DNA from: Octopus vulgaris
Taxonomy: Eukaryota
DNA: 64,000 bases
Reading direction: 5' to 3'
Assembly (NCBI GenBank): GCA_951406725.2
Contig: OX597814.1
Location: forward strand, 44,578,001-44,642,000
The translations under genes and the position numbers were made by a program. A model generated the notes under the pieces. The model was given only the letters and a program-made list of their open reading frames with translations. It was not told the origin of the DNA and made no database searches. Shown one piece after another: positions 3,460-64,000 of the stretch (positions within the stretch are counted from its first letter, which is position 1; every line of letters starts with the position of its first letter).

Positions 3460-4080
3460 ATGCAACATGATAGTTTAGGATTCAAAGTAGTGTTGGCGTT
3501 CATACTTTCATGCTTTGTTTATTTTATAGAATATGTTCGATGAAAATAATGTTATTTTGTTCAGCATGTTTCCATACTTCTTGTGAGATCAACTGTTTTT
3601 ACGTATCGAGTGGGGATTGGGTAGAGTATATACCACCTGAGTGGGGTGGATTGTGCCGTATATTTAGGTGGCACATATGCATTTGAGTTCTTGGATGTGA
3701 TATTGTATTAGGGGCTTGCTGTGTATGTCAACATATTATTTTATGGATGATTATGTAGAACATGGGTTATATTTTATCTGGGGATAATTATTAGCTGTAT
3801 ATGCTGCGTGCATTTTTCACATAGTGTACTGTATGAAATGTGCTATTGAATGGAAAATATCTTATATGAGATAATATATTTCTCATATATCTTATCATAT
3901 ATATTTGGGAGTCGTGGTGTGTGTTTTTTTTTTTTTCACTGCTTACCTATACTTCTTAACAACTACTGCGATTTACTCTTGCTTAATTCTACACTCTTCA
4001 TCTCATATGATTATTGGCCTTGTTGGTTTCTCCTACCAACAAGTTAACGTGGGCTTCAATGTCCCACCACCATTTTAGCT
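3460..4080 (-). mobile_element. Decayed Penelope-like element RT remnant
   Basis: A/C-rich minus strand with frameshifted relics of PLE RT motifs (LYP-IP resembling SLYTNIP; IFYKIKQSMKV*TP resembling FYxQxxGxxMGTP). Confidence 0.3.
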
Positions 4081-5565: not shown

Positions 5566-8362
5566 TTGTATAAGCGCCAATGTACCATGAGATAGTGAGT
5601 ATATACGCCACTTAAGAGAAGGCGAGTTCATTCCTTTAATACAGATGTTGAATAATCTCTTTGGGAACAGTCTCTTTCTGTCACTTCTTACGATACACGG
5701 CTTCTAATTTTAACTGATACTAAATCAAACACACATCACGAAGAAGTTGTCAATGATTTCTGTATTAACAACACATTTCACGCGTATTTTATCTTTCAAA
5801 GCTCTACTAGTGACATATTGTATTATACCACCATAAATATTGAGGTAAAATATTAAAGTAGGATAGTTATAAATAAAATTCGATTAAGAATTATATTCAA
5901 GTAGTTCTGAATTTATTTAAGACGGTTGCACGTAGATATTTTTCATAAAGTCAAATTTATATTTTCATAGCTTATGCTATGAAGGTAAAGAAGTAATTTG
6001 ACGTGATACGATAGAATATATTGTAATTTATGCTATACGAACACAAAATATTACATCAGTTATTTCTTAAAGAAAATGGACAACGCCTGATTTCCATCCA
6101 AAATTATTTAATTCACTGTGATTTTATCGTATTCAGTAATATTTAAAAAGAAATTTGATCCAATTTATTATACGCCTTATTAGTTAAGGTTCATTACTTT
6201 TCAGGTTCTGATAGAATTTAGGAAATAGTGTTTGGATTTTAAGTCTCAGGGCAAAGGTTGGGTTTAGTAACATTTGAATACTTTTGTTGATACTAATCTT
6301 CATTACAAAAATGGGTTGATCGCGTATGAACAGTTATATTTGTGTTGAATGTATTTGCGTATATGTATAACCCGTACATTTAACGCTTACAGATACAGAA
6401 TAACATCAAATAAATCGGACTATTATTTCTTTTGAAACAATTTCTGCATGGTAGCCTAGAAATCTGGAATTCTCATGCATTTTTAAATTCTTAAATTCTA
6501 TAATGAACAAATATTGGTTTGTTCCTGGCAGCAAATTGAAAAGTGTACACAGATCATCCACTGGACACTCATTATTTCTGGATACTCATTAATTCTGAGT
6601 TTTGTGTATTCAATGATTAAAAAAAAAAGTACTGTCTACCACCTTACACAAACGTTACCGGGGAGGTTTCGGCATCCATACCAGAAGATCATGTTTGTTT
6701 ACACTCATAGAAGTTCAAAGTGGGGCCAGAATGTAAATTTAGGAATTCTTTTTAAAAGAGAAAAATCTTAAATCAGAAAAAAATCAAAGTAAAACAACAG
6801 CTGCAAAAATTTATTGGAAACATGAAGAGAAATAAACTTAATAAAGGATACTAAATATTCGTATGAATAAGCACACAAGTGAGTTAAGTCATGTTTTTAA
6901 CCTAATAACAATGACAAAAGGCTATATAATGAACTTTAGAATAGTTTTACAGATTTATAATGTTTCACTCACTGACTGCATTTACAAATATTGGTTCCTC
7001 ACACTCCAAAAACCCTTTTTTTCACGTGACCAAGAAGAGCATTTCCATCCCCGTGCTACAAATTATTTCATCTCCACTTTTTGTACTCACTACAAATTCA
7101 AGATTTGGTTACTTTACGGCCTAAAACCCCAAGTTGTTGAAGATTAACTTAACAAAGGTAAGTACACCAATAATTATAGTTACAAATGTAAAATATGTGT
7201 ATATGTATAAATGTACGGATGACACTGGAACATTTTCCAAGATGGCAGAGCATAGTCTTCGTATGTGAATTATTTTAATGCCAAATACTATATATTGTCT
7301 TTGCTAAGCATCTTGTAGTTGTCAGTTGCCGGTGCTTCACTGAGGTGTGATAAACATTTGTTGCATTGTCTACCAAAAACTAAGTTCAATTCTCTCTGCA
7401 TATGGCCATTTAAGTTTTCGTAGAATACAATTCTAGGACCTGTCTCTACAACCTTTGAGATGAATTTTCATTATCTGAAATTATGTTTCTTCTTTTTACA
7501 ATTAGAATTTAAGTAATTAAAAGTTATTTTCGACTTAATACTTAACATTGGGTATCCTCCACGACTCCAGTTGATCAGTAATGAAACTGCTATGCTTTTT
7601 CCGTAGAATTAAATGTATCTGAATACGCAAGCGAGATAATGTATGCCTAAATGTAAGTGCATGTTAGATTTTACTTGTTACATGTACTAGGTGCACGTAT
7701 ATCTTTATTCAATGGCTCTCTATTCGATGTATTGTGACTCGTTATGCATATATATATAAATGCACGCATGTGATTTTTTCTGTATGTCCCTTTCAGTAAT
7801 GGACATATGGCACACAATCTAATGGAAAATATTTGGCGTATTTTACAAGATTTCACTGTATTATTATTTCGATTCAATTCCGTTGGTGAGTATCTACTTT
7901 GTTATTTTTTTTAATGAAAACTCGCTGTATTTTAAGTAAGTCAGCTTTTATATACTGTTTAGGTCAGAATTGGATTAAACAGTCATTTGTCAGCTCACCA
8001 AAGAAAACAATGTCGTCATCACATTGATGGACAGTTAAGAGAGAGAGAGGGGGGGAGAGAAAAGAGATGGGAGTGAGAGGGATATATAGAGACAGAGCTT
8101 GTATATAGATCACTACATCTATTATAACAGGTATAGTTGAAAATATATTATATGAGCACAAGAACTACATTTTCCACATTATCGCATCGCATATTTTCTT
8201 TCTCTATAACCTTAGACGAGACATTCATTTCCAATGACCACCTCAAATTTATCAAAAATGCATATTTGTTGCATCACATGGAGCAACATCGGGTCAATTC
8301 TCTTTTCTCTACATCAGTATTTTTATTGTGACTGTCCACCATTATTCCTTATTTTTAAAGGT

Positions 8363-11617: not shown

Positions 11618-12457
11618 CAGGACCGTTTCATCCACCTGCAACATTTCCGTGATTGCATCACACCGGACAGCGTGACAGCTCACGAGACCTTTGGGACTGG
11701 ACAGCGACACAACAGTGACGACTTGGTACGACGTCGACTGGCTATCAACGACCTGCGTTGCTGCCGTCCTGCTTGATCGCCTGTCCTAACCGCCCGCTAC
11801 CGTCAAGCACGACTGCAGTAGGCTACACAACACCGACAAAATCATCAACAACGGAGGTTGATAGTCTTCTATGACGAGATCCGGTACTGCTTTCCGCCTC
11901 TGATTGCAAAGTGAGGGTGTGGTGTAGGAGGAGTGAACGCTAGTGACGCATGTGTCTTAGTGAGAGACACGTGGGGTGGGGAAAGAATCATAGTTTGGGG
12001 TCCTATAGCCCTGAATTAGAGAATTGGGCTCCATGTGTTCCAAAATGTTGGTGCAGGCAGCGGGAATGGCGTCACAGCGCAGCGCTACCTTGGCCAGATC
12101 CTAATAACTCACATCATGCCCTTCTTCGCTCGGCGCCATAGCCACGAGTTCCGGCAGGACAATGCTCCCTCCCACACGTCCAAGGTCACTATGGACTTAC
12201 TGTGTCAGGACAACATTAGAACCATACCATGGCCGGTTCTCAGCCCGTATTTGAACTCAATTGAACACCTGTGGGATGAAATCCAGAGACGGCTGAACCA
12301 GGTGGTCTCAAGGTCGACAAATCGTGTGGAACTGGAGGCAGCTTCCGTCAGGCTGTGTGCACAAGTGCCAATGGCTTTTGTGAACTGCCTCATGCACTCC
12401 ATGTGCCGACGGTGTATGGCCGTTTTGAACATCCAGGGTGGGCATGCACTGTATTGA
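11618..12457 (+). pseudogene. Tc1 DDE transposase pseudogene (C-terminal two-thirds)
   Basis: QDRFIHLQHFRD, VRRRL, QDNAPSHT and PWPVLSPYLNSIEHLWDEIQRRL are Tc1 signature motifs. Frameshifts and stops are present, and the probable start ATG at 10570 is separated by the L1 insert. Confidence 0.85.
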
Positions 12458-30482: not shown

Positions 30483-32032
30483 AATACTGCGATAAATATT
30501 TTTGAGGATTCGAATTAACAAACTATAATTTGGTGATTAAGTTGTGAATGTATTGTGCTAACACAAAGGCAATTGCAGTAAAATAATAATATAAATTGCT
30601 TATACCCTTGTGCATGCCTACACATATACAAATATAAACAGACAATCTGATTTCATCCCGGGTAACCTTCTTACAATAAAATTCAGTAAACGATTCTATT
30701 GTCACTGACAGGATAATGATCCGCTTATTTCAGAGAGGCAATATAGCTTTTATAGGATTTCTTGATGAGACTAAATGATACATACTTGGTCCACAAGAAA
30801 ATGGGAACACCGACAAGACACATGAGTCTTTTGTGACTGACCTGAAAACATATGGCAAGATTACGAAAAATTGAGGAAAGGCCTTCACCAGGTTACATTC
30901 AGTTATAGGAAAAGTACTCAAAGCTCTCTCCATTCAAGAAACCAGTGAGGCGCAACTCAGTTACCAGTACTCATTCCAATATCTGAATCATTCAACTGGA
31001 CGTTAGGTGTAATACAGTTTATAGATGTTAAATTGAGGAACGTATTAAACACTATGTCGATAGGAATATTGAGTGCCTCTATCTAAAAGAAAAAGAATCA
31101 GGTAGCTGTTTAACAGTAATTTAAACGGCCTTTGAATGTCAGGAAATAGTTCTGTATCAGGACCATCTTCTAACGACAATGTTGAAATGCATGTAATGAT
31201 GAAATCTGCAGACAGGAGAGATAAAAAGAGAACGGAAAATATACTCTTAATGACTCGGAATACATATCTACGTATATTGCACAGCTTTTTTGCAAAAGGA
31301 CACCAGAGAAAAAGGTTTCTTTTCAGGAACCGAATGTAATCAAATATATTAACCCTTCCCTTCACCAGAATGGAAATTCGGTAGAAATAACCCAAGAACT
31401 CACGTACATTATAATGAGAAGTTAAAAAAGTCACTACGATTTTTGTACAAATGAGGCCTGACGTAGTGGCAAGAAACCAAATGAAAAAATCTATATTGCA
31501 ATCTGTAGAAGTAATTGTCCCTAATATCAAAAATACAAGATGTTACAATTACGTTAGTGGAATATTTCTGAATATTTCATAAAATGTAGACATAACAGAC
31601 TAAGCGAAATGACCTGGGTCAGAGAAAAAGAAGCATCAAAGTTGTACAAATCAATTTTCTGCAACCGCACATAACGTGATGATAGCTTGTAACAGACGTT
31701 AACATAATGGTAAATATATAAGAAAGAAAATAGTTATGGCGGAATAATGAGAAATTTGCAGATACTCCTCCCGGGCTATAACTTTCGATTTTTACCTATA
31801 ATTATGGGGACACTAATAATTGGGTTATGTAACTAAGTACTTCACCTCTAGTCTTGAGAAGACTGCTTCACAAAACAAACAAAAAATTCAAAAGGAAACT
31901 GATAAAATATACTTCACTTTAGCTTGCAATAGGTTAAGTTCATATACACACATGCACAAGCATAATTGAACACATAGGGATCCATACATACATGCTCACA
32001 CTCAAAAGTATTTGCGCCTGTGTCTGTATATA

Positions 32033-32106
<74 letters not shown>

Positions 32107-32119
32107 TCTATCTCTCGAT

Positions 32120-32237
32120 ATACATACAGATCTATCTCTCGATACAAATGTATGTATGCATTATGCATGTATCTATTTATCTATCTGTCTCTCTTTTCTC
32201 TCTTTTCTCTCTTTCTCCCTCTCTCCTCCTCTCTCTG

Positions 32238-32282
<45 letters not shown>

Positions 32283-32388
32283 TGAGAGAGACAGAGAGAG
32301 AGAAAGAGAGAAAAGAGAGACAGATAGATAAATAGATACATGCATAATGCATACATACATTTATATCGAGAGATAGATCTGTATGTAT
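32120..32388. repeat. Long inverted repeat centred on a (CT)n(AT)n(AG)n microsatellite
   Basis: 32120-32200 is the near-perfect reverse complement of ~32306-32388. Confidence 0.85.
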
Positions 32389-32849
32389 CTGTGTATATAT
32401 ACACACATAAACACACGCACATATGCATATGTACACATATGCATATTTATATACATACATCAATATATACCCATGATACTCACAAAGTTTCTACGAAGTT
32501 GTATTGTTCTTTGGTGGCGAACAGGAAAAGAATGTCCCTAGTAGCACTCAGTTATTTCAATATTCCACAAAATTAGAGTCTTCTAACGCATTGCATTTCC
32601 TTTTATCTTCGCTTCGTTTTGTATTTCAGTCAGTTATCGTTTCATTTTTGCTACGAATTGTGATATTTTGTTCAATGTGTAGTAAAATAGCACCCTGTTC
32701 ACAGTTTAAATGCATTTTTCTGTCTTTATGCTGCTATTTATTTTTACAGTTTGGACAATTATGCTCGTTAGCCTTTTGATAGTTGAATTGAAGTGCGGTA
32801 GTTCATGGTCTTCATGCAGGGCACTTTCAGGATAACATAATTATCCACT

Positions 32850-39632: not shown

Positions 39633-40340
39633 CAGAGACATGACAGAAGTACATAGATACCACATAAAACATCCTTTTATGCTTATACTAACTTTTGAAG
39701 GTTTATATTTTTTATTATTTGACCACATGTTCCTGTTTCCGATTTTATATGTGACTGTTTAATCGTTTCATGTACAAAAGAAGATTTAGAACTGTCTGAA
39801 TTTCAAAGAGGCTGTATTGTGGATTGTTCTGAAGATGGTTATAATCAGCGTAAAATCACAGAAAATCTTGGGATCCCGCTTTCTGCAGTAAACAGAGTGA
39901 TTGTGCAATCCACGAGAGAGGGGAAAGAATCCACGTCACCTCGCCCAGATCAACCAGAGCCCTCTCACAGGACCTTTCTGTTTGCTAAGAGAAGTGTGGA
40001 GAATAATCCTCGTTGCAAGGCCTCCAGCATAGCAAAACAAGTTGACTTCAGTCTCAGAACAGCTGTGAGGTATCTCAACAAACTTGGTTACTATGGCAGA
40101 ACAGCAAGAAAGAAGACATTTCGACTTGCCAACATCAAGCGGAGAAAAGACTTGGCCAGTGAGATGGTAAAGATGCCACTAGCTTTTTGGGACACTGTCA
40201 TATTCTCTGGTTGAGTGTACTCGAGACAGTGTTTGAGTGTGTGTCTGGAGACTTTGTGATCATGAAACACAGTGTCTATTTTGTGATGGTCTGGGGAGCA
40301 ATTTGGTGGATCAGAGGTGGTGGGGTGTGAGGGAAACAGT
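39633..40340 (+). mobile_element. Tc1-like transposon relic
   Basis: ORF 39819-40214 is a Tc1 N-terminal HTH region ending in LAFWDTVIFS(G). Paralogous to 20.6-21.3 kb. Confidence 0.8.
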
Positions 40341-54999: not shown

Positions 55000-55590
55000 C
55001 AAAAATATTATAGATTCATAACTGCATTATCACCCCTATTACCAGCTCACCCGCATTCTTGATTAACCATAACACTTCCACGAGATCGATGATCTCACTT
55101 AGAATATCCTTTACTCTCAGATTAATAATATTGTAACTACCATAACACTTCCAACAAGACTCTAGCTTGCCGCCAAATCCACCACAGATCTGTAAAAAAT
55201 AGCACACATACAGTCCCACTAACATGCTATTAAAACATTCATCTACCATCGCTTCTCTCACCATGCTAATAAAAGTAAGATGGCAATTATCACCACCACT
55301 GCTAGATTGGTAACACTAATCTTACCATCTAACATTTCCTTCACGAAATTACATTTGCTTCTAAACCCAGGCTTCTTTCTTCTATGCAATACCTTTCTTT
55401 CTCTTCCACCACCACCCCTCTCTCCGACTATCTATTTCTTTCACTCTTTTATATCGCACGGAAAACAGTTTCAGCGAATTACTTTTCACAAATTTCATGG
55501 AACTGGCTGTCCTGCTTCCCATTAATCACCACTACAGTTTCGATAGACGAATATCTGCCGTAAAATTCAATATCGGACATCACAGAAAGG
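55000..55590 (+). mobile_element. Decayed CR1/L2-like LINE 3' region
   Basis: C/A-skewed block ending with a 'HSFIS..WNWL..FP' relic typical of CR1-type ORF2 ends. Confidence 0.3.
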
Positions 55591-55702
55591 CCGCTTGTCG
55601 CCCATCAAAATATTCTAGCCTTGAAAACAGCAAAACCTTAATATGCGTCTATCCACCGAATTTATATGTTTTATATTCTGTATTAAAGTTTAGAAATACA
55701 AA

Positions 55703-55878
55703 AGCGTGGGTGTGTGATAAGAAGCTTCATGCCCAACCACATCGTCCGTGTTTCAATCCCACTTCGTGGCACCTTCGGCATGTGTCTTCTACTATAGCCT
55801 CGGGTCGACAATTTGTAATCAGAAACTGGAAGAAGACCGTCATATGTATATGTATATATATATGTATATACAAGTGTG

Positions 55879-55934
<56 letters not shown>

Positions 55935-56150
55935 CGTGCGTGCGTGTTGTGTGTATGTGACTTTGTGTCTGTTTGTACTCTCCACCACCGGTGTTGTAAT
56001 TTAGTGGTTCGCCATAAGAGAGTGAGAGAATAAGAACCATGCTTTAAGATAATCAGTGCTGGGATCGATACTTTCGACTAAAAATCCGTAAAGGCTGTGC
56101 CCCAGCATTGCTACAGTCTTATAACTGAATCAAGTAAAAGATAAAAGTAA
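55703..56150 (+). mobile_element. SINE family B, complete (head - internal GT microsatellite - 3' half)
   Basis: Head GCGTGGGTGTGTGATAAGAAGCTT..GTGGCACCTTCGGCATGTGTCTTCTACTATAGCC, then (GT)n, then the 3' half seen at 20.0 and 25.2 kb. Confidence 0.8.
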
Positions 56151-57051
56151 ATAGACAAGTAAGCCCTCTCGACCCATGAAGAACTAACAAATACAAGTTT
56201 CATAAATGTTAATGTTCAAACAACAACGATTATTACTACCACCACCACTAACATAACACTGGAATCACCATCACAATGTCAGTGTCCCATTACAAACATA
56301 TCTTATTCTTAAATCTGCCTCACCATCGCCACGATTCATCTAGAATAGTATTGCCGTTCATAACACTGACATATTTTCTATCCTAATAGGTGAAGTAACT
56401 GCTGAACTGTACTGATGCCCTTTCGTTCAGTTTTGTAAGCACTGAAGATGTAGATACAAAAATTGAAAAAAAAAGATACACGCAAACCGCTTATTATATA
56501 TTTGATCTACTACACAGAGAAGAACTGAAACAGAACACTCTACTTCGGGGCCATTTTAGCCGTACGGCATTTCATATATAGAGGGGGTGTTATCCCCTTT
56601 GTATATGAAATGTGTGGATAAAAACATAGAATTGATGCCAACGACACTATTGAAAAACAATTGTATTCTTCCAAATTCAACAATGCCTCTTTGTGATTCT
56701 GCATAATATATATGAGTACACGCATGCACAGACGCGCACACATGTACACATACACAATACGTATCATATATATATATATATATATATATCTATATATATA
56801 TATATTCATAACATAAGGATAAGAATCATGTTAATGATAATTATCAGGTAGTCAGCGTAGAAAAAAGCATTTTATATATTAAATTCATAATTAAATATAT
56901 ATATATATATATTACTGAGATGTACGTACATAGCAAGTGACCTGATATGGGATCGTGAGCTAGAACGAAAACAATTGCAACGTGGAAGGTGTTTATAAGT
57001 CATTTAAGAAACACACAAAAACCGTTAGATTCACTTTCAACATTTAAATTT

Positions 57052-57107
57052 CATTTGCCAAAATATTTTTGTCGGTTTGAGACAGCGACATGTTCACTGA
57101 CAAAATT
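57052..57107 (-). ncRNA. Minimal type I hammerhead-like motif (left palindrome arm; G3-C8 core)
   Basis: The minus strand reads AATTTTGTCA-GTGAACA-T-GTCGC..CCGAC-AAAA-ATAT-TT-TGGCAAAT. G12 is mutated in this copy. Confidence 0.45.
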
Positions 57108-57123
57108 CCGAGATGCAGCACGG

Positions 57124-57179
57124 AATTTTGTCACTGAACAGGCCGCGGTCTCAAAGCGACGAAAATATTTTGGCAAATT
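57124..57179 (+). ncRNA. Minimal type I hammerhead-like motif (right palindrome arm; variant core)
   Basis: Stem I AATTTTGTCA/TGGCAAATT, core CTGAACA+G, stem II GCCGC/GCGAC, GAAA, palindromic ATAT, then TT. Confidence 0.5.
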
Positions 57180-57223
57180 AAATTTAAATGTTGAAGTGAA
57201 TCTAACCGTTTTTGTGTGTTTCT

Positions 57224-57285
<62 letters not shown>

Positions 57286-57400
57286 AGTAGTTGAATGAAT
57301 TATCTTGTTATGGATAATTCGGTTAACCTATACCTGGGTAGCAAATTCACATCAGAGAAGACACGGTTGAAGTTAATTCGTCGTTCAACTCCATTCTTTC

Positions 57401-57455
<55 letters not shown>

Positions 57456-57484
57456 ATATATATGTGTGTGTGTGTATAATTATT

Positions 57485-57571
<87 letters not shown>

Positions 57572-57603
57572 TATATATTTTTTCTCTCCCTGATCTTTTC
57601 CGT

Positions 57604-57645
57604 GTTACTTTCTGTCGAAGAGCGTACGCTCGAAACGTAAAAGAC
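57604..57645 (+). ncRNA. Minimal hammerhead-like motif in a putative PLE terminal repeat
   Basis: CTTT-CTGTCGA-A-GAGC(GTAC)GCTC-GAAA-CG-TA-AAAG. Confidence 0.55.
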
Positions 57646-57731
57646 TTTCTCACTTCCCGAGCATTAAACTAATACATCTGCCTGACGTTTACACACCCGT
57701 CTTCGTCTTTTATTTTTTTCGTAAATTCTCA

Positions 57732-57785
<54 letters not shown>

Positions 57786-57899
57786 ATGTATATGTTTGCA
57801 TGTACGTATATGTATACATACTTAAATACATATCTACATTTTCAAGAGTCACGTAGATGTATCGATAAATTTTGAAGAACACATTGATTTTTTTTTTCC

Positions 57900-60170
57900 T
57901 CTATTTTTCTTCTCTTTCTTCCCACACTTCAACTGAGTTTAGTTTGCGCCATAGTTATGACTCCATAAAAAAGGAGCAAATTTTTAGTGGAGACCAATAA
58001 GGCGTACTACCAGCACTTTTCCTATCAAACTACCTTTGAAAACCACGAAACTAAAACCGGTTAAGCAAATATTAATAAAATATTTTTAAAAGATTCCAAG
58101 TGAACTTTCTACATTTATTTTCTTTAAAAATTATTTTCTTGCACATTTCCACCACGCGAGGACTGAAAATGGCACCAAAATCTGATTGAAGCTCTACTAC
58201 GACTGAAAAGATTTTAAAGAAAGTAAGATTCTTTCCAACCTTCCAATGTTAACATTTAAAAAACGTGATAGAATGTAGACATATAGCAAAGATTTTAACA
58301 AGAGTGTAGGTCAAATTCAATAAGCAGTTTAGTCAAACCTTAAACTAATTATTTACAGCCATAAGAACGTAATTCTACGGAGTGCAAAGCAGGAACCATG
58401 TACCGAAATAAGAGAACAACGTCATTAATCTGCAAAGACAAACACATTTTATTATATAAAGCTTAAATCATATCTGGAAGTCAAACCTCACAAACTGCAA
58501 ATATGCTATTGGCATGCGTTGAAAACTATCAGGGAAGTCGAAACATATAAAATGGATTAATTCAACAGAGAATGTTCTCCTCAGGAAATTACAAATTAAG
58601 CCAATTCTTTCTGAACTTGAACAAAAAAGATTATAATAAAGAATATGACTCTAGACAACTTCAAAACGGAAATCGAACTATTATAATTCAGGAAGAAGTC
58701 TAGTAAACACACATTCAAATCAGGTGAAGAACAAATGGAAGAGAAATTCAAAAAAGAAACCACAGACCCACTATATTAGAAAACCATTAAATTCTAGAGA
58801 TAATATGCAAAAATAAACAGTTAAAATCTCTTCATAGATAGGAGTAGAGTGCAAATTGGTTTTGTAATTATTACAATGAATTCAAAAACAAAATATTTAG
58901 CAGATGAACCATTATCGAGAAAAGGCTAAAATCTATACTCCTTGTGCATAAGCAATAAATTAAGTGACAAAAGAATTAAACTTATAATCACTAGGGTTAA
59001 GAAAACAATTATACAAACTCGAAGATAGTTAGACAACATAGAAAACGCTAAATCCTCCCTTTCCTCAGACAGAATATCTGCCAGAGCCAAAGATCTCAAC
59101 TTGTACAAAGAAGCAAAAATTATAACTAAAAAGAAACCAATTCCATACAGTGCTAACGAAAATCTAAATCTAAGAATGAACCCAATTACTACGGAAAACT
59201 CAGGAAAACAAAGGAAAAAAAATTATCAAGAAGTATAGAAACATCACCAAAATGATAAACGTTAAAAGTCATTTTGTTTAGAAACTGTCGACAGATTTTG
59301 TGACTCTAGGTGGTAAAAACCGACCAGATAATCAATCTTTCATACAGAAATCCTTCAGCACAAGATATGCAAGTTTTCTAAAAACGCTTGAAATTCTATC
59401 CAACAACACAATACCTAACTATAATAAAATAGTAGACAATCCCTCTCACTTCTGCAGAATATTATGCCTAACATAAGAAATATTTGACAAGGAAAATAAT
59501 GATGAATCAGTTGTAAGAAATCAAAGTGGATACAATCCAAAGTTTGGAACAAAGCTTTATAAAAATGTTTTTATACACAACTTTCTTTATCATGAACTAC
59601 CATAATCTAAATCCAAGTCCAATACTGGTCAAAAAGAATGAGAAATTATTCATAAACACAAAAATAATAATAACGTCATACTTTCTTTTTAAAAGGACAA
59701 GAGAAGAACTGTAGTCATTACGGATACTGAAACCTACAAACACATTGCATTTTTCCTACTACGATACTCTTATTATAACAAAATAAATTATCTCCGATCA
59801 ACAATGAAGAAACGCGACACTTTCATTCTCCTACGACGAATACGTTTAACAATCAGGGAGTGCAACAACCTGACGAAGTTTTAATGCAAGATCAACAATC
59901 TATACGGGCTCGTCAATATTTTCAATGATAAAACGATATATAAGACCAGTATGGAATATGCCGCCATTCATTAATGTTAACTTCACAAGTGATACAGGTA
60001 TGTGAGAGATGTGAAACAATCATACTCAGCAACATGTGAAACAATCATACGCAAAAACAGTATGTAGACATACTGCTCAAAGCCAGTCTCAATGATATAA
60101 TGAGCCTTGTAAAAGTAGATTTGAACCACCACCCAAAGAAAGTTTTTTCGTATTTTATTCTCATTTTTTC
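57900..60170 (+). mobile_element. Decayed Penelope-like element (ORF N-terminus to start of RT)
   Basis: Strongly A-rich plus strand. Relics 'VVITDTETYKHIA' (PLE DKG..VVIMD..Y), 'NLYGLVNIF' (YGLPKIH) and 'IRP' at 59.7-59.95 kb, with an HHR-bearing repeat upstream. The upstream extent is inferred from composition only. Confidence 0.5.
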
Positions 60171-60329: not shown

Positions 60330-63300
60330 CTGACAGATCCGTCTCTTAATGTAAGAGCCGAAGCTCGTCATGCTTCAATGTCAACAAAACAAACTACAAA
60401 CCGCGATGGTCATCGAGCGTATTACAAAAGACCACGTACCCGAAAATTGAACCAAAGTCTGATTGAAAAATCAGCTACTGGATCAAATCTTCCCGACACA
60501 CAGGAGCTGGACGTACTCCACAACTGGAATATTCCAACGGATGACCATCCATGCTCGTCACCAAACACTCAAAAGAAAAAGAACAACACAATACCTAACT
60601 ATAGATAATAAAGAAGTTCCTGCGGCCTTCTACCATGCCATATATTTTCCCACAGATAAATCGAACACTATACAAACCTACATAAACTGGAGACAGAAAC
60701 ACTCTGAAGCCAGACCCTACACAGACAGTAACAAACTTGCCAAGAAACATTATTAAAAAAATTACTGACTGAAGTAGAGATTGACCAAATTAGACAAGCA
60801 GTAGCGGATAGAATGAACAAAGCTGCAGCTAAAGAAGATAATACAGAGGAAATAATTATAGACCAGCCCAGAGGTGATAAAAACGAAGTAAGGATTGAAA
60901 GAGTTAGTATAAGTGATAGGCAAAGTGAAATACTCCCTGAACCAATCATAAACACTAAGACAGATGAACATCAAATAGATGAAGAAAGTCACACAAATAT
61001 TGACCCAACAGAACTACATGAGCTAAAAAGTCAAATCATGATTGAATGGCTGAAAATTAAAGAAACCAGTATGGATGAACGTGATACACTCCCTAAAATC
61101 CGCAACTCTAACCAAAACATGAAAATAATTCGTAAAATCCGGCTTGCACTTAAGGATATAATTTCAGCTAATGATGTTGATATCACAGATCTCAACCACC
61201 TATACTATGCATCCGCAAAAATCTCAACGATCCTATGTGGTGAAAAGATTAGAAAACGGCAACATTTCCACAAAAAGCCTTCTTGGCAAGAGCGTTTGCA
61301 ACAACAAATTAAACTATTTATATCTGACATTGAATATTTGAAAAACCTTAAGGTTCATAACACTACCAAACCTGCAAAAACTCAAAAACTAATGAAAAAA
61401 TATAATATGAAAACTATACTTGATATTGATGCCACCATAGAAACCATCAAGCAAAAAATATCTGCTAAAGCTGCCCGCATAGCGAGGTATGAAAAGCGTA
61501 TTAGATCCTTCAGGGACAACAACATGTTCAAAAATAACCCCAAAACTTTTTACAGGAAGATAGGAAAAACACCAGTTACTGTAAAGTCTGTACCATCAAA
61601 AGAAGAAGTGCAGGGATTTGGGAATAAAATTTGGGAAGAAGACAAAACATACAGCGAAAAGGCCCCCTGGATTAATAGAATATCTAAAGAACTGGACTCC
61701 TTAAAAGAGCAAACGTGGGAGGGTGTCAAGGTAGAAGATATAAGATCTGCTCTCAGGAGGTCAAGCAAATGGAAGTCTCCAGGAAAGGATAAAATCCCTA
61801 ACTTCTGGTTTAATGCCTTCCTAGAAAGCCATGAACTGCTAACAGAACTTTACAATGATGTTTTGCAACACCCTAGTAGGATACCTCCTTGGCTAGTTAA
61901 TGGGTTAACATTCCTGCTTCCCAAAAGTGAAGAAACAAATGAACCAAAAAACTATAGACCCATAACCTGCTTAACAACTATGTATAAAACACTAACATCT
62001 GTCCTGACGGAATATACCTAAAGTTTTTTGACAGACAGCAGCATATTCCCTAATGAACAGAAAGGATGTAAACGTGGATCCTACAGTTGTAAAGATCAAC
62101 TACTCATCAATAAGATGATCTTAGAAGATTGTCACAAACGACACAAAAACTTATCAATAGCCTGGATAGACTATAAAAAGGTTTTTGATAGCCTACCACA
62201 TAGCTGGATTAAGAAATGCCTGGACATGTATAAGATAGCACCTACTCTGCGAAAATATTTGTCCGTAAGTATGAGATCATGGAGAACCACACTAACTTTG
62301 AACAGTGACAATGAATCTCTAAATGCTGGTGATGTAAAAATGTCATGTGGCATTTTCCAGGGTGACTCACTATCACCACTCCTCTTCTTTTTAGCCTTAA
62401 TACCCCTCTCAAAACTGCTCAATGACGGGCAGTACGGATATAAAAAGTTTGATAAAAATATAAATCATCTCATTTACATGGCTGATTTAAAGCTCTTTGC
62501 AGAAAATGACCAACAACTCAAGGGCTTACTAGCGATTGTCAAACAATTCAGTGATGACATCAGAATGCAATTCGGCCTCGATAAATGTGCAAAAGCTACC
62601 TTTATCAAAGGAAAAATGACAGAAACATCTAACATTAACGTTGACCAGCAGAATGTCATAAAAGAATTAGACCCAGCGGAGAACTACAAATATCTAGGGG
62701 TAATTGAAGAGACGGAATAAGGCATTCAGAGATGAAGGAAAGGATCAGGAGAGAATGTTATCGCAGAGTAAGAGCAATATTCAAGACAGAGCTGAATGCG
62801 AGAAACAGGATCGAAGCGATCAATGCACTAGCCATACCAGTCGTGACATAGTTTCAATATCGTTAACTGGTCAATTACTGAAATATGTAATCTTGACAGA
62901 AACATACGAAAACTGTTGACAATGCATAGAATGCACCACCCTAAGGCAGATACAGAACGACTTTATCTGCCAAGAAAAGAGGGAGGCCGTGGTGGACTTT
63001 TACAACTGGCAATAACAATGAAGATTGCTACAATTGGCCTAGACACCTACCTGAAAAACTCTGAGGACTGGATGTTAAAACTTGTCTCAAAACATGAAAA
63101 CAAGAAAGCATCATACTCAGTAACAAAACAGGCAAAGGAATATCTAAGTGAATTCCGAATACAACAAATTTCGGAATTAGAGATAGACATAGAAGAAACA
63201 GGCACAGAAAAAGCTAAGCGCATGAAAACCCGTGCTAAATCTGCGGCCTTAGATATTCTGAATGATAAATGGCAAGAGAAACCTCTCTATGGCAAATACC

Positions 63301-64000
63301 CAAAGAGAGCGAATAATGCAGATGTTGACAAAGCCCTGACCCATCAATGGCTAATGGCCTCTGGCTTAAAATCATAAACAGAGGGATTTATCATCGTAGC
63401 TCAAGATCAATGCCTACCAACAAGAAACTACCAGGCCAACTTATTAAAGATCGGTAGTAGCCCAACATGTCGTGTATGTCAGCAACCAAATGAAACCATT
63501 GATCATGTGGTTTCCAAGTGCAGTCTTCTAGCGCCTACAGAGTATCTTCACAGGCATGATAGAGCTGCACAATATATTCACTGGGTAATTTGCAAAAACG
63601 TGGATTTGCCCCATGAAAAAACTCGTGGGAACACAAACCACCCCCAGTGCTTGAAAATGACCACATCTCACTCCTCTGGAACTTCACCATTCAAACTGAC
63701 AGAAAGATAGATGCAAATAGGCCAGACATCATATTGAAAGACTTCAAACAAAGAACATGCCTCCTCATTGATATGACTGTCCCAATCGATATAAACGTAC
63801 CTGTCAAGACCTACCCAAAGACTGAGCAAATATAAAGATCTTGAAATAGAAATCAGCAAAATGTGGAACCTGAAGACTAAAACAATACCTGTTGTCATAG
63901 GTGCCCTGGGAATGAGAGCGAAAGGGGATGATCGCTACCTAACTCAGATACCAGGAAACCCCAAAATGGCAGAAATTCAAAAGATAGTGCTCATGGGAAC
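60330..64000 (+). mobile_element. R4/Dong-clade non-LTR retrotransposon (RT plus restriction-like endonuclease), near full-length, running off the window
   Basis: Single disrupted ORF: [62 protein letters not shown] (YMDD mutated), YKYLG, RLYLPRKEGGRG, CRVC..ETIDHVVSKC, RPDII..D..ID, KYKDL. Confidence 0.9.
60378..64000 (+). pseudogene. R4/Dong polyprotein pseudogene (RT-CCHC-REL), several stops and frameshifts
   Basis: ORF-track pieces 60378-60608, 60463-60756, 60813-62021, 62028-62720, 62916-63377, 63507-63710 and 63647-63835 join into one collinear protein. Confidence 0.85.

Follow-up and report, generated by a model that had tools for sequence, protein, structure and literature searches.

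Introduction

Engineered swaps established the tertiary pair between positions 3 and 8 of the hammerhead ribozyme. G12 is the general base of the hammerhead, and U17 and a G3-C8 pair each predict slow cutting.

Minimal hammerheads are described in Penelope-like elements (PLEs), where opposite-strand pairs have been noted and where the elements of Schistosoma carry a natural U3-A8 pair (PMC4209133). In the PLE hammerhead of Anolis, a single C3G or G8C substitution abolishes cleavage and the double substitution partly restores it (PMC11167929); as an engineered change, G3-C8 is also described in PMC3884650. PLE insertions are known as solo pseudo-long terminal repeats (pseudo-LTRs) and as head-to-head inverted pseudo-LTRs with a one-sided tail, in microsatellite targets (PMC3846280, PMC8557442). 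In vitro work on the element of Anolis traced this tail to two sites inside the RNA at which reverse transcription begins (PMC11167929). A CX2-5CxxC linker marks the Neptune and Nematis types rather than Penelope and Poseidon (PMC8557442).

Here we analyze a palindrome with hammerhead-like arms in a 64,000-nucleotide stretch of the Octopus vulgaris genome (contig OX597814.1, positions 44,578,001 to 44,642,000), called the window below, whose own numbering is used throughout. With a probability of roughly 0.85, the best explanation is that two copies of a PLE solo pseudo-LTR were inserted head to head and have since decayed; both copies are predicted to be inactive, and the G3-C8 pair of the family is likely a natural compensatory variant.

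Results

The original prediction placed a palindrome at 57002..57228, and the inverted repeat there is real, with 90% identity over 228 columns and 89% over ungapped arms of 80 nt. The element itself, however, is larger and asymmetric, since its left arm continues to 56912. The left arm (56912..57110, minus strand) covers unit positions 9-206 and includes a 3' tail, whereas the right arm (57111..57228, plus strand) extends from the 5' limit of the family to position 116 and lacks the tail. The two arms meet at a fold-back junction (57110..57112, plus strand), where G57110 is common to the left arm and to the typical 5' start of the family, G-AG-ATG. Both outer ends sit in (TA)n, at 56895..56911 on the left and 57229..57282 on the right. 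The window also contains transposase remnants (DDE_3, Tc3-type HTH) and a broken LINE, at 12020-12457, 39723-40214 and 60732-63710, with RVT_1 of the LINE at 62022-62717. A second inverted repeat, at 32026-32470 (78%), is made of microsatellite-rich sequence.

The unit terminates in about 30 open codons, which in the left arm occupy 56912..57003 on the minus strand (ATG 57003-57001), a segment that includes the tail between both 3' ends of the family. Two database proteins labelled Octopus (P0001/P0002) continue this reading frame as a PLE-type N-terminus, as does the genomic copy L180. Coding copies were located by a genome search with the protein that continues the ORF-start peptide; a search with the GIY-YIG family as a route to the parent was rejected, as it gave mostly another PLE family (781 aa). 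In L180 one pseudo-LTR (3721-3924) is followed by the ORF and then by a second pseudo-LTR (7982-8182), all on one strand, so that the unit found in the window flanks a frame with reverse transcriptase (RT) and GIY-YIG parts. The open frame of L186, 1025 aa long, carries a C-terminal GIY-YIG domain (PF01541 at 915-1005, E 1.8e-5). Pfam gave no match to RVT_1 or any other RT family in L186, and the RT was recognized from its motifs; read from the translation, L186 has YVDD and a CX3CXXC linker. An unbroken full ORF was present in 0 of the 10 coding copies fetched.

These features are those of an endonuclease-bearing (EN+) PLE: a single ORF with RT, identified from its motifs, followed by a C-terminal GIY-YIG endonuclease, and pseudo-LTRs that include the ORF start, occur in direct and inverted orientation and have an optional tail. 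The linker before GIY-YIG is of the CX2-5CxxC type, which, like the (TA)n flanks, is found in Neptune and Nematis, and points to an EN+ PLE of one of these two types. Judged by sequence, the window unit is a solo pseudo-LTR of about 206 bases from this PLE, and the window holds two of them.

The unit belongs to a large repeat family, as had been proposed: a pattern of 31 bases taken from the sequence that follows the ribozyme has 3498 matches in the genome. The first 100 of these 3498 places in the list gave 67 loci and, after removal of duplicates and of copies riding in a Helitron-like carrier, a sample of 90 arms in 53 loci. The proposed hammerhead layout is present in each window arm, in the order stem I, core, one extra base, 5-bp stem II, GAAA, ATAT, UU and stem I'. 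Intact family copies have U4 G5 A6 A9, G12 A13 A14, A15.1-U16.1 and H17 of the minimal type I core, together with a palindromic stem III, an extra base after A9 and a pseudo-LTR location. The UUU cleavage triplet suggested earlier agrees with the column counts of the family. The extra base between A9 and G10.1 and the palindromic stem III are likewise family-wide, but they are not the rarities they were taken for, both being normal in the PLE hammerheads of PMC4209133. The stem I' consensus needed correction, since the base opposite U is A in 54 of 83 arms and G in 24 of 83.

The variant core, which had been predicted from two damaged copies, proved to be the state of the family. Exact matches to a 28-base core pattern number 1652 genome-wide for G3-C8, 8 for C3-C8 and 0 for the canonical C3-G8, with 0 matches for reversed controls. 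With positions 3 and 8 left free there are 1873 matches, and the first 100 listed comprise 93 G3-C8, 4 G3.U8, 3 other and 0 C3-G8. Arms of the 53-locus sample that were collected without bias toward the core have G3 in 60/64 and C8 in 62/66. An apparent C/G polymorphism at position 3 in a first, BLAST-type sample was due to query bias (8 against 1652 exact matches). Under the label of another organism the variant core also occurs, because a loose-end consensus of 22 contigs from run X16 (organism C) shows GTGAACA.

In intact copies, stems I and II form the minimum free energy structure (z -3.41 and -2.76). For two copies paired by way of the palindromic stem III the predicted energy is -28.8 kcal/mol, against -30.8 for two monomers. 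Searches with Rfam detected no hammerhead at 55000-59000 of the window at E<=10, nor in five other loci among the 150 rows listed out of 184. The expectation that the core would be more conserved than its flanks failed: non-CpG divergence is 4.2% (30/707) in the core and 3.6% (113/3097) in the flanks. This comparison is uninformative among dead copies because neutral decay predicts no difference, and the informative comparison is that between families.

Related PLE families in the same genome, with RT identities of about 50-60%, carry the motif shortly before the start codon of the ORF. Family B has 3160 exact matches; of the first 100 listed, 98 carry C3-G8 and 96 have C rather than A at position 9. 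Family B is young, with intact 1312-aa frames and an Asn-rich insert (e.g. L189:7384-7433); its stem III is a non-palindromic GAAC, and L199 keeps A9. Family C has U3-A8 at the same site, and family D, a single copy (L210), has a fully canonical CUGAAGA with C3-G8. In the more distant PLE family of 781 aa, 6 of the 30 GIY-YIG loci (L126, L128, L129, L132, L137 and L143) carry a minimal hammerhead that has U3-A8 and lacks the extra base.

We aligned 14 natural copies and the two window arms, leaving out, among others, L204, L206 and L212, which are decayed or truncated. The 3-8 pair over these 16 rows is GC in 5, UA in 5, CG in 4, UG in 1 and a mismatch in 1. Paired cells make up 94.9% of the alignment, compared with 82.0±1.5% after shuffling (reached in 0/500 shuffles) and 30-48% when the structure is slid, for rows that were chosen by hand, mostly by a pairing descriptor, and that represent three to four independent lineages. 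Two-sided changes occur in stems I, II and III across families, and 6 of 11 pairs have one, a number equalled in 178/500 shuffles. On the proposed check of stem I and II pairing, the Watson-Crick 3-8 pair and the stems covary, in few lineages and in rows chosen mostly by pairing. Such cross-family covariation provides strong support that the motif represents a real hammerhead. A quick RT tree separates families A, B and C (SH-aLRT 100), with G3-C8 confined to family A, the family of the window. It was built from rows of this genome alone, and its root is unreliable, the outgroup filling 23% of the columns. For this reason, the view that G3-C8 is derived rests on parsimony and on the canonical state elsewhere.

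We think that the ribozyme of the family is somewhat more likely to be active than not. We give a little better than even odds to the fuller account, in which this octopus PLE lineage would use a working G3-C8 hammerhead and, within the clade, the 3-8 pair would have taken C-G, U-A and G-C forms by crossing a dead intermediate. Cutting would not be required at every insertion, and the pair could therefore have passed through such an intermediate.

The main alternative accepts the same origin and sees in the hammerhead of the family a relic, catalytically dead or nearly so, that persists only as a fold, such as a protein-binding or promoter element, with G3-C8 reached by drift. It sits poorly with a 3-8 pair that differs among related families (C-G, U-A, G-C) and is Watson-Crick each time, as this tertiary pair is important for catalysis and G-C requires two transversions, and with the retention of U4 G5 A6 and G12 A13 A14 A15.1 U16.1 while loop II varies in length and sequence. 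It gains, on the other hand, from the 5' ends of the arms: 56/90 start within 12 bases of a fixed limit and 1/90 at the cut site, suggesting that the templates were mostly uncut RNA. Moreover, family B thrives and has spread with C9, so the constraint on the core may be loose in this clade, and a hammerhead with little or no activity could be all that G3-C8 represents. Ribozyme mutants leave in vitro insertion unimpaired (PMC11167929), and PLE minimal hammerheads are described as cutting poorly (PMC4209133). On balance we regard the relic as possible but rather unlikely.

The arrangement of the two window units is usual for the family. Head-to-head pairs were found in 32/53 sampled loci, and in 27 of the 32 an arm with a long tail is joined to one with a short tail. 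The 3' ends of arms cluster at 139-155 in 37/90 and at 196-206 in 44/90. Solo copies have 61 distinct 5' junctions, 11 of which continue into the upstream region of the element, which ends in a branch-point, a pyrimidine tract and AG. Among the other 50, a G stands just before ATG in 43, and in 15 the sequence is G-AG-ATG at a place where C or T stands in the element (13/24 in an earlier subset, p 2e-4 against 0.2). Window positions 57110-57113 are one such 5' junction. The extra G would be compatible with an RNA that starts at one fixed point and whose cap G was copied, or with a very small exon joined by splicing. No splice donor that explains the 5' G-AG was found in 9 upstream regions scanned, and no joint at the acceptor-like site was found in the contigs of 4 runs, which are assembled, lack molecule ends and bear neither way.

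A palindromic copy was also captured by a non-autonomous Helitron-like element of about 2 kb (about 1.5-2 kb shared) and spread with it (L071-L087, e.g. L074:3299-5254); the end of the carrier, a hairpin plus CTAG, is Helitron-like in our reading. Because this one palindrome spread inside the carrier, exact-match counts overstate the number of independent insertions. At L162:1745-3088 there are at least 7 head-to-tail hammerhead-bearing units of 170-190 bases, resembling a retrozyme array; here dimers of the G3-C8 ribozyme could arise in cis.

The two window hammerheads were then compared with the family. The right one (57126..57178, plus strand) consists of stem I at 57126-57133, the core at 57134-57140, an extra G at 57141, stem II at 57142-57146/57156-57160, GAAA at 57161-57164 followed by ATAT, and UU at 57169-57170; by this layout the cut predicted originally, at 57170/57171, is correctly placed. 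The lesions reported for the two arms, C3 on the right (57134) and A at position 12 on the left (57070), are present, but the list was incomplete. The right copy, with its C3.C8 mismatch, has a further mismatch in stem II, at pair 2 (C57143/A57159). The left one (57053..57105, minus strand) keeps G3 (57097) and C8, and besides G12->A it has a changed extra base and a change that breaks stem II pair 5. Neither window copy has an intact core, and both ribozymes are predicted to be inactive. Their folds are unremarkable (z -1.10 on the right, -1.31 on the left). The right arm differs from the column majorities by 4 substitutions in 116 positions and the left by 15 in 198, plus a 1-base insertion; this divergence of 3-8%, beside a family median of 4.9%, fits neutral decay of the family.

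The original prediction went further and interpreted the palindrome as a functional cassette with a ribozyme on each strand, possibly an RNA switch. Two hammerhead layouts do lie on opposite strands, and read-through RNA would form a hairpin predicted at about -137 to -139 kcal/mol, a possible ADAR or Dicer substrate. In that RNA, however, the pairs of stem II have a predicted probability of at most 2e-16, and no transcript of the locus could hold a cis dimer because the hammerheads are on opposite strands. Both cores are broken, this layout occurs with both cores kept, and the ribozyme start in both arms, at 18 of the 53 loci in the sample, and the divergence of the arms is that of the family. 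Scanning 10 window frames revealed no host gene, only transposon and LINE remnants. Since head-to-head pairs are usual in the family, a standard PLE fold-back that left an insertion by-product explains the palindrome, and a cassette or switch is very improbable. It is scarcely credible that the palindrome is instead a DNA transposon of MITE type, bounded by long inverted repeats and inserted at TA, whose likeness to a hammerhead is due to chance. In its favor, the flanks are TA and one fixed-centre palindrome spread as a unit (51/231 distinct arms in the whole sample). Against it, centres vary and arm ends are unequal where a MITE has fixed equal termini and a fixed inside, the unit forms the direct repeats at the ends of an RT and GIY-YIG element, the fixed-centre form rides inside the shared Helitron-like carrier, and the hammerhead covaries across families.

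Discussion

A PLE origin would account for the window palindrome through the following steps. The DNA junctions suggest that the element RNA starts at a fixed point about 20 nt upstream of the ribozyme. The RT-GIY-YIG protein would nick (TA)n DNA, and reverse transcription would start internally, at two places within the beginning of the ORF, as indicated by the two 3' ends at about 145-150 and 206. Copying would then be confined to the short 5' end of the RNA, which is uncut, giving a solo unit of about 200 bases, and fold-back or template switching, to which the junctions again point, could join two copies head to head. The master element would have a hammerhead in both pseudo-LTRs on the same strand; the two would pair as a 5'-3' dimer by means of the palindromic stem III and cut slowly, perhaps helped by protein. 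Once inserted, copies decay neutrally, as shown by their divergence.

The window palindrome itself is an ordinary, dead copy, and the interest lies in its family. G3-C8 beside sisters with C3-G8 and U3-A8 amounts to an evolutionary test of the 3-8 pair, and together the families could be used to ask whether cutting by PLE hammerheads is under selection at all. Descriptors of the ribozyme should permit all pairs at 3-8. If our interpretation is right, searches based on CUGANGA miss such ribozymes, so that thousands of animal copies, and some PLE families counted as ribozyme-less, have gone uncounted. The sharp 5' limit and the two 3' ends of the solo copies add a second animal group to those that support a model in which PLE reverse transcription starts internally on RNA that has not been cut. 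Our literature search found neither a natural G3-C8 hammerhead nor an octopus PLE hammerhead, an absence that is uncertain as supplements may list cases; the word ribozyme does not occur in the main text of an octopus repeat annotation paper.

The closest relatives are the PLE minimal hammerheads described by Cervera and de la Pena (2014, PMC4209133). Like those of the octopus, they are of type I with an extra base between 9 and 10.1 and G10.1-C11.1, have a palindromic 15.2-16.2, and are mostly solo, with some opposite-strand pairs 100-700 bp apart. The octopus family differs from the hammerheads reported there in having G3-C8 rather than C3-G8 or U3-A8, in its U17, and in the occurrence of three 3-8 states in one clade and one genome. 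Natural 3-8 covariation, as found here, was described by Perreault et al. (2011, PMC3088659), but in that account as U3-A8 only. Poseidon of Anolis carolinensis (Frangieh et al. 2024, PMC11167929) shares with the octopus element AT-rich targets, two internal reverse-transcription starts, within the beginning of the ORF, that give the tail, a hammerhead beside the ORF start and an uncut RNA template. Its G3-C8 is an engineered double mutant with partial rescue, whereas G3-C8 in the octopus is the natural state; unlike Poseidon, the octopus element has its hammerhead about 56 nt upstream of the ATG and a CX2-5CxxC-type linker. The published inverted-pLTR PLE insertions (PMC3846280, PMC8557442) are the same in principle as those of the octopus, which has thousands of copies, with tails of about 55-60 nt compared with 30-40 nt. 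What the octopus family adds to these systems is the family-wide fixation of G3-C8 in an animal, with sister families that show the other two pairs.
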